Below are positions 41,484 to 47,770 of a stretch of 64,000 nt of DNA, piece after piece (position 1 is the first letter of the stretch; each line of letters begins with the position of its first letter). The position numbers and the translations under genes are program-made. Source of the stretch: Ostreococcus lucimarinus (Eukaryota); assembly GCA_000092065.1 (NCBI GenBank), contig CP000593.1; one strand, 5' to 3'. The notes under the pieces are model-generated. The model did not search any database and was not told the DNA's origin. It was given only the letters and a program-made list of their open reading frames with translations.

Positions 41484-41597
41484 TCTTCCTTAACTCAGCT
41501 GGTAGAGTGTCAGACTGTTAGGAAAAAGTCTCCGTCGAATATGACGGCTGCTCCGATAGAGATCTGGAAGCCGCGGGATCGAAACCCGCAGGAAGAG
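41484..41597 (+). tRNA. trnN(GUU): tRNA-Asn (anticodon GUU, 41517..41519) with 41-nt intron (41521..41561)
   Basis: Hand-folded cloverleaf. Acceptor TCTTCCT/AGGAAGA (7 bp), D-stem ACTC/GAGT with AGCTGGTA loop. Anticodon stem TCAGA/TCTGG, loop CTGTTA|intron|A. T-stem GCGGG/CCCGC with loop ATCGAAA, discriminator G. Intron at the canonical 37/38 position and pairs with the anticodon region (AGTCT:AGACT). Confidence 0.8.
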
Positions 41598-41599
41598 AT

Positions 41600-41609
41600 G
41601 TGTCGACAT
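41600..41609. promoter_or_regulatory. ZDRE-type palindrome GTGTCGACAT directly 3' of the tRNA
   Basis: Perfect match to RTGTCGACAY, 2 nt after the discriminator base; lies inside the 223-bp repeat. Confidence 0.4.
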
Positions 41610-41619
41610 CAAACCTTAC

Positions 41620-41624
41620 TTTTT
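41620..41624 (+). terminator. Probable RNA polymerase III terminator (T5 run)
   Basis: TTTTT located 23 nt downstream of the tRNA 3' end. Confidence 0.5.
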
Positions 41625-41840
41625 CCCATACCCGATTGTCCGTGATGGAAAAGCGACACGACAACACTGTGACTTTCGTCGTTTCGGGGTGACGGATAGT
41701 ACTTTAAAAAATTTATCGCTATGAGTAATAAAAATAAACTTTTTTTTTGAGTTGGGGCACCCCAACATGATAAAACCGCACATCGACGTTGATGTACCGC
41801 ATGTAAGATTTCTCCAGAACCAATCGTGTGAGTGAAGTGG

Positions 41841-42338
41841 TCAAGCCAAGCCGCGTAACTCATCTACCGTAAATTGATACTTGTCGAGACTGCGCTTCGA
41901 AGGCAGCGTGCCGCGCGCTCGGGCATTCTTGAGGCACGTCTTGCGCAGTATTCCTTTTGCGTGCTGCTTGTAATAATTGAGTTGTCTGTAGTTACCATCG
42001 CCGCCGTCCCGCTTCGGCGTATATTGAGCTCTGCTGTAGGCTGGACTCTCGTCCACGTTCTCGCGGCACGCGTGTTTCTGGCTGCGTCCAGCAGCTCGGG
42101 AGTTGAATAAGCCGTCACGCTTCTCTCTCATGTAGGCACCTTTACGTTGATGGAGCTCTCCAGCTGGAATGTCCTTTTCGAGAACTCTCACGTCCGCGTC
42201 GCCAAACGTGAAGATTGGATGTCGTGCGTATTTATGCGAGGCAAGGCGCGCTCTGAGCGAACCCGTCGTCGATCCGATGTACGTTTTGTTACATTTCGCA
42301 TTATCGCTAAACATTTCGTACACGCATCCCGACGGCAT
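41841..42338 (-). CDS. GIY-YIG nuclease-domain protein (homing-endonuclease-like)
   Basis: N-terminus GCVYEMFS...KTYIGSTTGSLRARLASH fits the GIY-(10-11 aa)-YIG...R...H module, followed by VLE. Basic C-terminal half; ATG confirmed at 42338. Confidence 0.6.
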   Translation of the reverse strand: MPSGCVYEMFSDNAKCNKTYIGSTTGSLRARLASHKYARHPIFTFGDADVRVLEKDIPAGELHQRKGAYMREKRDGLFNSRAAGRSQKHACRENVDESPAYSRAQYTPKRDGGDGNYRQLNYYKQHAKGILRKTCLKNARARGTLPSKRSLDKYQFTVDELRGLA

Positions 42339-43169: not shown

Positions 43170-44810
43170 TCAGACTAAGCCGTCGTTTTGAGAGGGCGCC
43201 GACTTTGCCTTTGGTTTTGCCTTCGACTTTGAAGTGGGTTGCGGCCTGATCTCCTCTTCGATCTCCTCGTCGTCGACCAAATCTTCGTCGATTTCTTCGT
43301 CGTCTTCGTCATCGACTTCGTCGTCTTCGTCTTCGTCGTCTTCGTCTAGAAAGACATCACCCATGACTGCTCTCCAGCCATCAGAACCCATTTCGAATTC
43401 TTCGTCGGTCAAGAGGCAAGAGTCCAACGTTGATTGAATTTCATCGTATTTAAGATCCTTGCCAATGAACACCAGTTCTTGTCGGCGATCACCATAAGGC
43501 CCCTCCCAGTCTTTACGAAGTTCTTGCTTTATCCCCTGTGAGCCGACCCAAGCATTTTTATTCAGCGCGGTCCATCGGCTTGATCCTTCGAGAGAGTAAA
43601 TATTACCAGCCTGACTGAAAACAATTATCAAGTCGTGGGCATCACTGAGCCACGTTACACCCTTCGAACGTAGCAGCACACCAATTTCACCTTCCCTTTT
43701 ACGGCGCTTGAGTTTCATCGCTTCTTGTCGCGCTCGAATATCTTTCACTGCACTCCAGTCTACACTTGGTGTCTCTTCATCTTTTTCTTCATCACGGTCA
43801 TCGGCCTCGAGGGAGCTGAAGAAGCGCTCGACAAATGAGCCTAAAAACCGTTTGGGATGAAAAGGTCTTCTGGCTCGGTAAATGAAAGACGTAATACCGA
43901 ACCGACTATCGTGACGTGTTTGGGAAGAACTTGGTGCAAGCGTGACCTCGCTTAAGGCTGTTTCTCTCATGCGAGCTCGCTTACAGCATGGAGACTCACC
44001 TTTGTCCCTAGCGCCGGCGCAGCATGACTTCACAGATGTTGCTTCTATCTCTTGTTCCCATGTTATGAAACCAGCAAAGTCATTCTCTTTGTAAAGTTTT
44101 GTATTGACGATTCGCGTAACGTCGATCGCGCCGTTCACAGCTTCAAGAATATCAGCACGTGAATTGAGAAGTTGTATCTGCGCTTTAATCTCGGCGAGTT
44201 GTTCGTCATCGACAGTGTCGACCTTGTTCAATACGACGACATTCGCGTACTCTATCTGTTCAGCCAACAATTGAGAGTAAGACTGCCTGTTCACAGCTGA
44301 CGCCCTGAAAGAATCAATCATGTCGAGAAAGTCACCTGCAGCGATGACCGTCACGCACGTATCCAGCCGCGCCAGTGTGCTCAAATGTTCATGCTCATCA
44401 ACGTGCGCAGCTTCATGATCGTGATCGTCCTCACAATTTGCGAAGAGTTTCGCAATTTCCGCCGGTTCCGACACTCCTGATGCCTCTACGATCATGTAGT
44501 CAAAATTGCCACTCTTGGCCATGTCCCCGATTTGTTTTACAAAGTCTCCGCTCAACGAACAGCACACGCATCCGTTCTGCATGGCAACCACCTCGTCGCT
44601 CTGCAGCAAAGCGGAATCATCGATTAATTTTTTGTCGATGTTCAACTCCGCGACGTCGTTCACGACGACGGCACACCGAAACTTTCCGTTCGCGTCTCGC
44701 TTAGCTTCGAGCACGCGTTTCAGAGTTGTCGTCTTCCCAGCGCCGAGGAACCCGCACAGCGTTGTCACCGGCAATCGATTATGATTGGCGATTGCGGCGG
44801 GTGTGGACAT
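43170..44810 (-). CDS. COG0523/CobW-family metallochaperone GTPase (ZNG1/ZCP-like zinc chaperone)
   Basis: P-loop GFLGAGKTT, canonical CxCC metal motif (NGCVCCS), His-rich stretch DDHDHEAAHVDEHEH, CobW_C region and a long Asp/Glu tail. ORF start 44915 is GTG, first ATG is 44810. Confidence 0.9.
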   Translation of the reverse strand: MSTPAAIANHNRLPVTTLCGFLGAGKTTTLKRVLEAKRDANGKFRCAVVVNDVAELNIDKKLIDDSALLQSDEVVAMQNGCVCCSLSGDFVKQIGDMAKSGNFDYMIVEASGVSEPAEIAKLFANCEDDHDHEAAHVDEHEHLSTLARLDTCVTVIAAGDFLDMIDSFRASAVNRQSYSQLLAEQIEYANVVVLNKVDTVDDEQLAEIKAQIQLLNSRADILEAVNGAIDVTRIVNTKLYKENDFAGFITWEQEIEATSVKSCCAGARDKGESPCCKRARMRETALSEVTLAPSSSQTRHDSRFGITSFIYRARRPFHPKRFLGSFVERFFSSLEADDRDEEKDEETPSVDWSAVKDIRARQEAMKLKRRKREGEIGVLLRSKGVTWLSDAHDLIIVFSQAGNIYSLEGSSRWTALNKNAWVGSQGIKQELRKDWEGPYGDRRQELVFIGKDLKYDEIQSTLDSCLLTDEEFEMGSDGWRAVMGDVFLDEDDEDEDDEVDDEDDEEIDEDLVDDEEIEEEIRPQPTSKSKAKPKAKSAPSQNDGLV

Positions 44811-44986
44811 GATGTACGGCGATCGACGTCTCCGCGCGCGAACGAGCCGAAGAGGCGTCGCGAAGTGCGGCGATGCGCGCGCGTCGTGCACGTGTCGACG
44901 ATTCGCGTCGTGCACGTGTCGAGGATCGTCGTACGCGACGCCCCGCGAAGCCCATCACGGATCGCGTCGCGACGCGCGTCGTAAAC

Positions 44987-45143
44987 ATGTCGACACGCAT
45001 GTCGACATATTTACCCACGCGCGTGTACGCATTGAACCCCGTGATGCATCTATATACGAAAAACGTCTCGACGCACATGTCGACATATTTCGACATATCC
45101 AAGTACCACCGAGATGTGTCGACACTGCGGCGGATGTCGACAT
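44987..45143. promoter_or_regulatory. Cluster of five perfect ZDRE decamers (RTGTCGACAY) in the COG0523/ZIP divergent promoter
   Basis: ATGTCGACAC 44987..44996; ATGTCGACAT 44999..45008; ATGTCGACAT 45077..45086; GTGTCGACAC 45116..45125; ATGTCGACAT 45134..45143. A one-mismatch copy GTGTCGACGA lies at 44892..44901. TATAAA at 45167..45172. Confidence 0.6.
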
Positions 45144-45368
45144 TTTGTCGTTCGCGAGTCGTGACTTATAAACGACCGCCCTCCATCGCGCCGGTTCGGT
45201 TCGTATGCCGCTTTAGTTTGTGCGCAGCCGCACTTACCGACGCCGGCGAAGACGACGACGACGACGGAAACGATGACGAACGAAAACACGAAGAACACGA
45301 AGACGACGATGCCGCCGCGCGAACGCGCACGCGGTGCGAGGACGGTCGAGCGACGACGAGGGCGAACG

Positions 45369-46802
45369 ATGCGCTGCGCGAGCGCGCTCGGTGGTGGCAT
45401 CGCGATCGTCGCGAGCGCGCTCGCGCAGCGCGGCGCGCACGCGTCCGGCGCGCACGCATTCGAATGGGCTGGAATCTTTGAGACGCCAGAGAATGAATAC
45501 GTGTGGCAGGCGCAAAAGGTGGCCGATAAGTACGCCGCCGATACCATGAAAATGGTCATCTACGACGAAATCGCCGCCGGACACGACGAGCTCGAAGCCC
45601 GCGAGGATAGCGGTGATACCGCAATCGGGGGAGCTTGTACGACGGCTAAGATACGAGATAGTGTTTTGACACCTGATAGTGGGTGTGTCAACCTTGAATT
45701 TGACAACACCTGGCACACGACGCCGTTTAAGATTAATACGACTGGCATCGACGCGATCTCAATCTTCGCTGAGCACGTTCCCACCGAGTTCGAGCGCGAC
45801 GCGCACTATCTCAAGGACCTCCACGGAGATGACGTGGTGCCAAAAGCTTCACTTCCCGAAGCATCCACCGTGAGCGAATCGAAATCAAAACCGTGGGCCA
45901 ACGCCATTGGGGCGGCAATTATCGTCAATATCGTCACACTTTCTGGTGTGGTCTTTCTCATCCCGAGTATCGCTAAGAAGCAGAAAGCGTACCCTGAAAC
46001 TGTGAGTTGCACAATTAACTCGTTTGCCGCCGGCGCACTTCTTTCGGCTGCGTTTTATCTGATGTTCTACGAAGCCACGCATTTAATCAAACCTGCTGGC
46101 TCGGATGAGGCAGAGCAGACCGCATGGTGGGCTTCCGCTTCTATCTTCGGCTTTCTCATGGCCTACTTCATCGACTTTGGTATCTCTGTCGTGTTCCCAA
46201 CTCTTGGAAATACAGCGAAGACAACCGATGCGGAACTTGCAGTCAAAGGCGCTCAAGATGACTGTGATACTTGTACTTGTAACTCACACAAGTATCGCGT
46301 TCGAAGTGGTATCATTCTTGGAGATTTCATGCACAACCTAGTGGATGGTATTTTCATTGGCTTCGGCTTTCTGAACTGCGACAGTACCATGGGATGGTCG
46401 ATCACCGCCGCGACCGTCTATCACGAAATCGCTCAAGAGCTTGCTGACTACTTGGTGCTCGTAGACCCCTTCCAGGGCGATCTCGCGCCGTTGCCGACGC
46501 TGACTTTAAACTTCGTTTCCGGCTTGAGTGTCATTCTTGGCGTCCTCATTAGTGTTGGATCGGGAAATAACAACGACTTCTGGCATGGACTGCTGCTCGC
46601 CTTCGGTGCTGGAGTCTATCTGCAAATCGCCGCCGCAGAGTGCATGCCCCGAGTATCAGTGAGCGCCACTTCACCTCGTCTTCGCGCGACGAGCATTCTC
46701 ACCTTCATCGTCGGCGTTGTTGCCATCAGTCTCGTGCTCCTCAACCACAAGCATTGCACAGGCGGTGGCGGTGGCGGAGACTCACACGCACACGCGCACT
46801 AA
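45369..46802 (+). CDS. ZIP-family (ZRT/IRT-like) divalent metal transporter with N-terminal extracytoplasmic domain
   Basis: ZIP signatures GDFMHNLVDGIFIG and YHEIAQELADY, multiple TM helices, Cys/His-rich loop (DDCDTCTCNSH), C-terminal GGGGGGDSHAHAH. ATG at 45369 gives a signal-peptide-like start (MRCASALGGGIAIVASALA); the upstream in-frame ATG at 45273 is also possible. Confidence 0.85.
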   Translation: MRCASALGGGIAIVASALAQRGAHASGAHAFEWAGIFETPENEYVWQAQKVADKYAADTMKMVIYDEIAAGHDELEAREDSGDTAIGGACTTAKIRDSVLTPDSGCVNLEFDNTWHTTPFKINTTGIDAISIFAEHVPTEFERDAHYLKDLHGDDVVPKASLPEASTVSESKSKPWANAIGAAIIVNIVTLSGVVFLIPSIAKKQKAYPETVSCTINSFAAGALLSAAFYLMFYEATHLIKPAGSDEAEQTAWWASASIFGFLMAYFIDFGISVVFPTLGNTAKTTDAELAVKGAQDDCDTCTCNSHKYRVRSGIILGDFMHNLVDGIFIGFGFLNCDSTMGWSITAATVYHEIAQELADYLVLVDPFQGDLAPLPTLTLNFVSGLSVILGVLISVGSGNNNDFWHGLLLAFGAGVYLQIAAAECMPRVSVSATSPRLRATSILTFIVGVVAISLVLLNHKHCTGGGGGGDSHAHAH

Positions 46803-47025: not shown

Positions 47026-47369
47026 TTAATCCAGATACGCGCGCACGCCTTTCTGAAGCATGGTCGGTACCTCGGCTTTCAACTTGTCTGGGAGCGTCGC
47101 GTCGGCGTCCTTGACCTCGCGCAGAAAATCGAGCACCCTATTGGTGGAGAACTGTCAGGGAAGGATCCAAGGTGGCGGCATTTGATACACAGGTTGCGCC
47201 AGGCTTTGTTAGACAGCAACGGACTCGATTTTACATCATCCGCCAGTATTGCAATTCCTACACGCTTCCCATTTAGCCAGTGCTTGGGCTCCTCGAATTG
47301 GTCTGTTTCGGGATTATACAGACTGAGCATCTCTGGGGTCAAATACTCGTCCCACACGGAGGCGTTCAT
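47026..47369 (-). CDS. Small orphan gene, 2 exons (47369..47235, 47151..47026); may be 5'-truncated at the repeat junction
   Basis: Two coding-looking frames join exactly by an 83-nt intron (47152..47234) with GTAAAA donor, CTAAC branch and pyrimidine tract + CAG. The open frame continues upstream to a TTTACAG acceptor-like site at 47419..47425, abutting the right repeat. Confidence 0.3.
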
Positions 47370-47432
47370 CAGGTGCCCATCGAGTTCCTTGTATTGCTTC
47401 AATCTCGTCGCGGTATCTCTGTAAACAATTTT

Positions 47433-47532
47433 GCTGGTAGAGTGTCAGACTGTTAGGAAAAAGTCTCCGTCGAATATGACGGCTGCTCCGATAGAGATCT
47501 GGAAGCCGCGGGATCGAAACCCGCAGGAAGAG
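47433..47532 (+). pseudogene. 5'-truncated copy of tRNA-Asn (D-loop to 3' end, intron included)
   Basis: Identical to 41498..41597 but lacks the acceptor 5' strand and D-stem 5' strand, so it cannot fold. Confidence 0.85.
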
Positions 47533-47534
47533 AT

Positions 47535-47544
47535 GTGTCGACAT
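47535..47544. promoter_or_regulatory. ZDRE-type palindrome GTGTCGACAT in right repeat copy
   Basis: Perfect RTGTCGACAY match, the counterpart of 41600..41609. Confidence 0.35.
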
Positions 47545-47770
47545 CACACCTTACTTTTTCCCACACCCGATTGTCCGTGATGGAAAAGCGACACGACAAC
47601 ACTGTGACTTTCGTCGTTTCGGGGTGACGGATAGTACTTTAAAAAATTTATCGCTGTGAGATTCACCCCCATGGGGGGAGCTCGGCTTCCCTGATTTTTT
47701 TGTCACTTTTTCACGACGCCGCGAACCCCTCGTCCCGAACTCCGAGACGCGACGCGAGACATCCATCCCA

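Follow-up and report, generated by a model that had tools for sequence, protein, structure and literature searches.

Does the zinc-deficiency circuit of land plants, in which basic leucine zipper (bZIP) proteins of group F (F-bZIPs) act on the zinc-deficiency response element (ZDRE) RTGTCGACAY, have a counterpart in green algae? Reviews place the origin of the F-bZIP/ZDRE system in land plants and deny its presence in green algae, naming Ostreococcus lucimarinus specifically (PMC5476651, PMC9643250), and the zinc regulators of green algae were described as still unknown (PMC2770081). The question is raised by a stretch of 64,000 nucleotides of O. lucimarinus DNA (assembly GCA_000092065.1, contig CP000593.1; hereafter, the window), in which a 558-bp spacer between divergent genes for a COG0523 GTPase and a ZIP-family transporter (ZIP-A) contains several copies of this 10-bp imperfect palindrome, with the consensus taken from PMC5476651. 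A preliminary description of the locus had read the spacer as a bidirectional, ZDRE-dense promoter and as a sign that the land-plant circuit operates in a prasinophyte. We consider it fairly probable that the decamers are sites of bZIP dimers within a metal-starvation regulon of Mamiellales, two promoter modules of which are joined in the window, and that the regulator is a protein of the type of O. tauri ostta06g02300. In the literature, we found no paper describing this element, or a role of ostta06g02300-type bZIP proteins, in algae.

Both flanking genes were confirmed by their Pfam domains (Table 1). The COG0523 product combines the cobW GTPase domain and CobW_C with the CxCC metal-binding motif, present in the translation as GCVCC together with the histidine-rich stretch DHDHEAAHVDEHEH. 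ZIP-A is identical to O. lucimarinus XP_001420991.1 and XP_001422904.1 (exact cluster look-up) and shares 84% identity with O. tauri ostta06g02310. All five exact decamers reported for the spacer are present, spanning 157 bp. The whole window contains 7 exact copies against 0.43 expected, a number that none of 100 shuffles reached, and one-mismatch copies are not enriched (15 against 11.1 expected). The two exact copies outside the spacer are one sequence, GTGTCGACAT, occurring twice within a 228-nt direct repeat. Two details of the preliminary description had to be corrected. The supposed one-mismatch copy at 44892, GTGTCGACGA, has two mismatches; it belongs to a tandem duplication of 24 bp (44881-44904), which a near-identical sequence in a related contig (L025, see below) does not have, and is probably not a site, the true one-mismatch copy being ATTTCGACAT at 45087. 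The longer word common to two of the copies, given as a 16-mer, is the 15-nt CATGTCGACATATTT.

Loci for comparison were retrieved through homologs of ZIP and, later, of the bZIP gene that neighbors it in relatives. In seven other Mamiellales lineages, fetched by protein and not by motif, we counted 22 decamers in 90.6 kb against 0.87 expected (at most 4 in 300 simulations). Nineteen or twenty of the 22 are located in spacers next to ZIP, bZIP or COG0523 genes, which make up 6.4% of the sequence, and the remainder of the approximately 150 kb examined is nearly devoid of the motif. In the window and the related loci, all 36 octamers TGTCGACA are preceded by R and followed by Y, as in the plant consensus; by its sequence, the element is indistinguishable from the plant ZDRE. 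Decamers are found upstream of ZIP-A in eight Ostreococcus lineages and upstream of a second kind of ZIP gene, ZIP-B, in L025, an O. lucimarinus-like Ostreococcus contig, and in the two Micromonas-like lineages L011 and L134, where the only copies of TGTCGACA in 16.9 and 14.6 kb, respectively, are those 270-424 bp upstream of ZIP-B. They also precede a second COG0523 paralog.

The ZIP-A promoters of the eight Ostreococcus lineages, whose ZIP proteins are 79-99% identical, align with three invariant blocks in divergent DNA: two decamers whose starts are separated by 18 bp, and a GAGTC-N2-GA block before a TATA-like box. The 18-bp spacing recurs in L001, L002, L003, L005, L006, L007 and L010, and the ZIP-proximal pair of the window is ancestral to all Ostreococcus lineages examined. 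The ZIP-A spacer of O. tauri contains three decamers at a 12-bp pitch (L009:7892, 7904 and 7916), equal to the distance between the first two distal sites of the window. The decamers behave as a conserved cis-element: they recur before orthologous ZIP genes while the surrounding DNA diverges.

The third block takes the form of a near-palindrome, GAGTC-R-Y-GA-Y-TC, which follows the proximal decamer at a distance of 12-20 bp in every Ostreococcus ZIP-A promoter (window 45156-45172, L001:5786, L002:5641, L005:5229, L009:7873 and L010:2706), and in several lineages it includes TGACTCA, a site of the AP-1/GCN4 type. It may be a general promoter element, because copies are also found at a few unrelated places. 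Single perfect decamers at L003:5840, L007:8730, L010:741 and L002:4853 lie either approximately 115-135 bp before small unrelated open reading frames (ORFs) or immediately after the stop codon of the bZIP gene; they are possibly further targets or chance placements. Small ORFs downstream of ZIP with a decamer at this distance upstream (window 47079-47402, L003:5514-5726 and L010:156-626) were considered as members of the regulon and rejected, as they show neither mutual homology nor a Pfam match.

As to the promoter itself, the density of decamers between the two genes stands, but the notion of a single promoter does not: the spacer of the window is two ZDRE promoter modules fused. The evidence comes from L025, which carries ZIP-B, a second, IRT-like ZIP gene (Pfam Zip 163 bits, three histidine-rich stretches, 20% identity to the window ZIP) that is divergent from an LHC-like gene, has four perfect decamers upstream, and occupies a locus syntenic with the Micromonas-like ones. 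Positions 2133-2375 of L025 are 99.5-100% identical to the 266-bp window segment 44833-45098, so that the half of the spacer nearest COG0523, and with it three of the five sites, is a copied ZIP-B promoter. The segment stops 23 bp from the COG0523 start codon, and its orientation relative to the gene is unchanged. In L006, the COG0523 gene is 99.9% identical to that of the window, yet the 266-bp segment is missing; unrelated AT-rich sequence takes its place, and the spacer carries the proximal decamer pair only. In L005, the 3.6-kb module is 95% identical overall to that of the window, with the sites intact. ZDRE-bearing promoter DNA has been copied between genes of the putative regulon.

The COG0523 protein of the window is only approximately 30% identical to the COG0523 neighbors of ZIP in O. 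tauri and L001 and is a different paralog. The O. tauri-type paralog has decamer sites of its own in L001, L010 and L045; two different COG0523 paralogs have thus come to lie behind ZDRE-bearing promoters. A scan of metagenomes for paired decamers (pattern TGTCGACAYN{2,8}RTGTCGACA) returned mostly unrelated soil and gut DNA, with L025 and L045 as the relevant loci among the 120 matches listed.

This copying might suggest that the cluster is merely a by-product of local repeat expansion or segmental duplication, a minisatellite or the scar of a mobile cassette, with no regulatory role. The distal sites do lie on a copied segment, which in L025 forms a tandem array with a unit of approximately 89 bp, and the two outlying decamers are embedded in the 228-nt direct repeats. 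The flanks of the COG0523-ZIP module also differ in close relatives: homology of window positions 43179-46802 to L005 (95%) and L006 (90-99.9%) ends at the stop codons of COG0523 and ZIP, and L005 has an ANAPC11 gene there, so the two-gene module occupies different genomic contexts. We nevertheless disfavor this explanation and regard it as very improbable, given that the position and spacing of the proximal pair are kept where the ZIP proteins are only 79-84% identical and the neighboring bases have changed, that the orthologous ZIP-B promoters of a different genus carry the motif as well, and that it is so rare in the rest of the DNA examined.

What might bind the decamers is suggested by their form and by their neighbors. 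RTGTCGACAY is built like a target of bZIP homodimers: its 5-bp half-sites, RTGTC and GACAY, abut, the same arrangement as in the cAMP response element (CRE; ATGAC/GTCAT) and the C/EBP site (ATTGC/GCAAT). In relatives, a gene for a bZIP protein of 190-260 amino acids lies beside the ZDRE-bearing ZIP genes. The order on O. tauri chromosome 6 is ZIP (ostta06g02310), three decamers, bZIP (ostta06g02300, XP_022839227.1) and COG0523 (ostta06g02290), with gene lengths that agree with the published table. The bZIP gene adjoins ZIP-A in O. tauri, L001, L002, L003/L004/L007, L010 and L045, the ZDRE spacer usually being common to both, and adjoins ZIP-B tail to tail in the Micromonas-like L011 and L134. 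Among the bZIP proteins of the relatives, P0174, P0164 and that of L003 match Pfam bZIP_2 at 27-31 bits, one of the scores being 30.5, against a cut-off of 22.3.

These proteins were compared with land-plant F-bZIPs, which were retrieved using an AtbZIP19 sequence. The basic region is GNREAVRKYREKKKA in the land-plant proteins and NRAAVRRYRER(K/R)R in the algal ones. Both contain the signature NREAVRKYREKKK, with N-R-[AVG]-A-V-[RQ]-R-Y-R in Mamiellales and NREAVRKYR in the F-bZIPs of our alignment (A4), and the five base-contacting residues, N, A, V, Y and R, are the same. In bZIP-DNA structures such as the GCN4 and C/EBP complexes, these positions contact bases. Of the 37 hits of an exhaustive HMMER search (1.84 billion representatives), the Mamiellales proteins and two unassigned metagenome proteins, P0305 and P0323, are the only ones with N-x2-A-V-x2-Y-R; ATF4-like hits with a basic-region match read A-A...Y, not A-V...Y. 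The algal proteins have, in addition, a conserved C-terminal H-x-D-x-C-x-C motif (FLExYFTHGD(A/T)C(P/L)C in Ostreococcus, FLxTFLVHDDxCPCPGH..H in Micromonas-like lineages).

P0305 (L013:8001-10289), a protein of 762 amino acids encoded by a eukaryote with GC-rich, intron-poor DNA, combines two basic regions of the F type, GNRAAVRRYREKKKA and GNREAVRRYREKKKA, with Cys/His stretches (CVHAHHTC ... ECWHVHRI) that resemble the F-bZIP sensor motif; two GTGTCGGCAY variants are located upstream of its gene. It may be an algal relative of F-bZIPs.

Several observations speak against an F-bZIP-like regulator acting through these sites. The N-terminal His/Cys-rich zinc-sensor motif that defines F-bZIPs, C[ST]HTH[ST]CNP[PT]GPE..H[ST]HTC[FL]H[AV]HT, was not found in any of the Mamiellales homologs. 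Profile comparison with hhalign scored Mamiellales proteins at 66 (E = 3e-9) against F-bZIPs and at 86 (E = 4e-12) against ATF4-like proteins, with F-bZIPs scoring 80 against ATF4-like ones. A neighbor-joining tree, for which the references of other bZIP classes were entered by hand, grouped the Mamiellales proteins with both F-bZIPs and ATF4-like proteins in a single cluster (bootstrap support 16%). Neither the profile comparison nor the tree thus places the algal family with F-bZIPs rather than with ATF4-like proteins. Upstream of the O. tauri COG0523 gene, ATGACGACAY variants take the place of a perfect site. A bZIP of the ostta06g02300 family is present neither in the 64-kb window nor in the stretch of 536 bp that follows ZIP-B in L025, none of the 29 bZIP homologs carries the O. 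lucimarinus name, and Castro et al. (2017) reported no F-bZIP in O. lucimarinus or Chlamydomonas (PMC5476651), which a 2022 review repeats. Finally, the sole expression evidence for the O. tauri cluster comes from iron limitation. Of the proposal that the ZDRE circuit operates in a prasinophyte, then, the conserved cis-element stands, as do the F-type contact residues in the bZIP of relatives; the Cys/His motif of F-bZIPs does not, and the search for an F-group bZIP within the window was negative.

The lack of a linked bZIP raises the alternative that in O. lucimarinus a different protein, another bZIP or a member of another family, recognizes the sites, the linked gene having been lost, and that the match to the plant ZDRE is convergent. 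The sites are still intact in the window and in L005, although neither the window nor the vicinity of ZIP-B in L025 contains a bZIP gene and no F-bZIP has been reported for this species (PMC5476651). No remnants of a bZIP gene were found in the window spacer, only the motif itself, read as M-S-T. This absence, however, pertains to the 64-kb window and the available part of L025 alone, and all other lineages examined retain the bZIP beside a ZDRE-bearing ZIP gene. A weak hint in the same direction is that the L001-type bZIP cluster has 186 + 94 metagenome members against 7 in the matching ZIP-A type; because it is so much larger, the bZIP is possibly also present in genomes with another ZIP-A type. 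We consider a different binder quite improbable and retain the ostta06g02300-type bZIP as the likely regulator.

The nature of the metal signal is the point at which the strongest alternative arises. We found no zinc-limitation transcriptome reported in the literature for Ostreococcus or Micromonas. When O. tauri was kept for one week at 54 nM versus 1080 nM Fe-EDTA, the three clustered genes rose together: COG0523 (ostta06g02290) reached 110-235 normalized reads compared with 10-16 (log fold change, logFC, 3.5), ZIP-A (ostta06g02310) showed an overall logFC of 2.0, and the bZIP gene (ostta06g02300) an overall logFC of 0.4, with 2.1 and 1.6 at the two daytime points (PMC4855317). This joint rise supports co-regulation of the three genes. 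It also fits the possibility that the element and the bZIP govern the response to iron limitation, or to divalent metals in general, the likeness to the plant ZDRE reflecting DNA-binding chemistry and not physiology. Consistent with such a role, ZIP-B has three histidine-rich stretches, as does the iron-regulated IRT1 homolog ostta16g02300 (PMC4855317), and a ferric-reductase gene lies near ZIP-A in L003 and L007. The equivalence of ZIP-B and ostta16g02300 is, however, that of a candidate only. Short-term iron chelation had little effect in O. tauri (COG0523 logFC 0.55), and the authors of that study stress strong zinc-iron cross-talk (PMC4855317). Moreover, COG0523 genes with CxCC and histidine-rich stretches are typical zinc-starvation genes, and in Chlamydomonas COG0523 is induced by zinc limitation, with the regulator stated to be unknown (PMC2770081). 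We rate iron or general divalent-metal control as unlikely, if the most serious of the alternatives, with zinc deficiency as the putative signal.

Under the preferred reading, a dimeric bZIP would bind RTGTCGACAY and control a small metal-starvation regulon in Mamiellales that would comprise two kinds of ZIP, two COG0523 paralogs and, for most lineages, the gene of the regulator as well. In the window, the ancestral 18-bp pair, followed by the GAGTC-N2-GA block and the TATA-like box, would drive the ZIP gene, and the 266-bp copy of the ZIP-B promoter, with its three sites, would serve COG0523 from 23 bp upstream of the start codon. The regulator would be a bZIP of the family that O. tauri ostta06g02300 represents, in which the C-terminal H-x-D-x-C-x-C motif could sense metal, so that metal binding would control the protein. 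Given that related algae carry the motif ahead of transporter genes, mostly with a fitting regulator gene alongside, this circuit of plants may have existed before land plants did. We offer, as a tentative extension held with less confidence than the reading above, that a ZDRE-bZIP metal-deficiency circuit predates the chlorophyte/streptophyte split, that Mamiellales possess a compact, self-linked form of it with a previously undescribed C-terminal sensor and with promoter modules shuffled between its genes, and that the ostta06g02300 family is a green-algal zinc or zinc/iron regulator. If true, the combination of a conserved ZDRE with a linked bZIP with F-type contacts would either make the circuit hundreds of millions of years older or be a striking case of convergence. 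It would also make a concrete candidate sensor available in O. tauri and provide sequence markers for metal limitation in ocean metatranscriptomes.

Table 1. Features of the O. lucimarinus window in and around the COG0523-ZIP spacer
Feature	Position	Strand	Remarks
Left 228-nt direct repeat	41498..41725	+	Begins inside the intron-containing tRNA 41484-41597; GTGTCGACAT at 41600
COG0523 (G3E GTPase) gene	43170..44810	-	Pfam cobW 5e-41, CobW_C 1e-18
Segment copied from, or common to, the ZIP-B promoter	44833..45098	-	blastn against L025: 100% over 66 bp, 99.5% over 196 bp
Two-mismatch near-copy GTGTCGACGA	44892..44901		Product of a tandem duplication of 24 bp
ZDRE-like decamer ATGTCGACAC, distal module	44987..44996		Exact; on the segment shared with the ZIP-B promoter
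ZDRE-like decamer ATGTCGACAT, distal module	44999..45008		Exact; 12 bp (start to start) after the 44987 site
ZDRE-like decamer ATGTCGACAT, distal module	45077..45086		Exact; on the ZIP-B-promoter segment
One-mismatch copy ATTTCGACAT	45087..45096		Abuts the 45077 site; right end of the transplanted segment
ZDRE-like decamer GTGTCGACAC	45116..45125		First of the ancestral ZIP-proximal pair; invariant in the 8-promoter alignment
ZDRE-like decamer ATGTCGACAT	45134..45143		Exact; second of the ancestral ZIP-proximal pair
Third promoter block GAGTCGTGACTT	45156..45167		Near-palindrome GAGTC-R-Y-GA-Y-TC, just before TATAAA 45167-45172
ZIP-family transporter (ZIP-A) gene	45369..46802	+	Pfam Zip 9e-22, 78 bits
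Right 228-nt direct repeat	47433..47660	+	99% identical to the left repeat; lacks the tRNA 5' end; GTGTCGACAT at 47535

The two RefSeq accessions for the ZIP-A protein suggest two gene copies in O. lucimarinus; an exact-sequence look-up aimed at two genomic places of the window ZIP returned no match. The ZIP-A frame is open from an alternative ATG at 45273, which adds 32 residues (MTNENTKNTKTT...), and because this extension is conserved in L003 (approximately 80%), the annotated start may be too far downstream. A weak Rfam match to a Burkholderia small RNA across the spacer scored 24 bits, where the threshold is 74, and was put down to chance, the palindromes having produced it.

The 228-nt repeats, 5935 bp apart, bracket a cassette of lower GC content (0.46-0.53 against 0.6-0.7 outside) that contains a GIY-YIG-like ORF, COG0523, ZIP and an ORF of 107 amino acids, and resembles a tRNA-inserted island or a segmental duplication. 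The tRNA in which the left repeat begins was detected by Rfam (49 bits, with an intron), with none reported by ARAGORN, and is probably Asn-GTT. The GIY-YIG-like ORF (165 amino acids, 41841-42338, minus strand) has weak similarity to this nuclease family (Pfam E = 0.009), below threshold.

Several other loci were encountered in the searches. A 1.2-kb Arctic marine metagenome contig (L015, GC 0.53) contains four copies of ATGTCGACAT within 105 bp (977-1081), each flanked by extensions resembling CATGT/ACATG. A 1.69-Mb contig (L008, GC 0.46) carries a tandem array of at least four intact ZIP genes of 458 amino acids and a fragment, 42% identical to the window ZIP; no TGTCGACA was found in 13.4 kb of it. 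Soil contigs with GC of approximately 0.6 and bacterial-looking genes (L014, L030, L031, L041, L048, L065, L087, L095, L103, L114 and others) share an intergenic element of approximately 33 nt, GCGTGCCGTGTCGACACTC[AG]TGTCGACAC, which is probably an unrelated bacterial repeat or operator.

Among known systems, bacterial Zur regulons are similar in that one repressor box precedes zinc importers and COG0523 genes, often divergent or clustered (PMC2770081), but they employ a Fur-type protein family, a different operator and prokaryotic operon logic. The best matches to the algal bZIP among solved structures are metazoan ATF4 and C/EBP proteins (e.g., 1ci6; ATF4 E = 0.002). The O. tauri annotators labeled ostta06g02300 as ATF4/5-like; ATF4 shares R-Y-R in the basic region, and its profile similarity to the algal family is as high as that of F-bZIPs. 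However, ATF4-like proteins with a basic-region match have A-A where the algal proteins and F-bZIPs have A-V. The ATF4-like proteins bind sites of the CRE or C/EBP-ATF response element (CARE) type, are not known to bind TGTCGACA and have no known link to metal genes.

The Arabidopsis bZIP19/bZIP23 regulon (ZIP4, ZIP9, IRT3 and others) uses the same 10-bp consensus (PMC5476651). There, too, several copies are found within a few hundred base pairs upstream of ZIP genes, and the regulators have the base-contacting residues N-x2-A-V-x2-Y-R of the algal bZIP. The algal protein differs from Arabidopsis F-bZIPs in lacking the N-terminal sensor motif, in place of which it has the C-terminal F-[TV]-H-[GD]-[DE]-x-C-x-C, and in a zipper that is 3 residues shorter in the profile alignment. 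Unlike in Arabidopsis, the algal candidate regulator is physically linked to its candidate targets, with a promoter in common, and the candidate regulon includes COG0523 genes. In this last respect, it resembles the zinc-deficiency response of Chlamydomonas, with ZRT transporters and ZCP1/ZCP2, the core of which is likewise formed by ZIP and COG0523 (PMC2770081); whereas the regulator and the cis-element are stated to be unknown there (PMC2770081), Mamiellales present a candidate for each.

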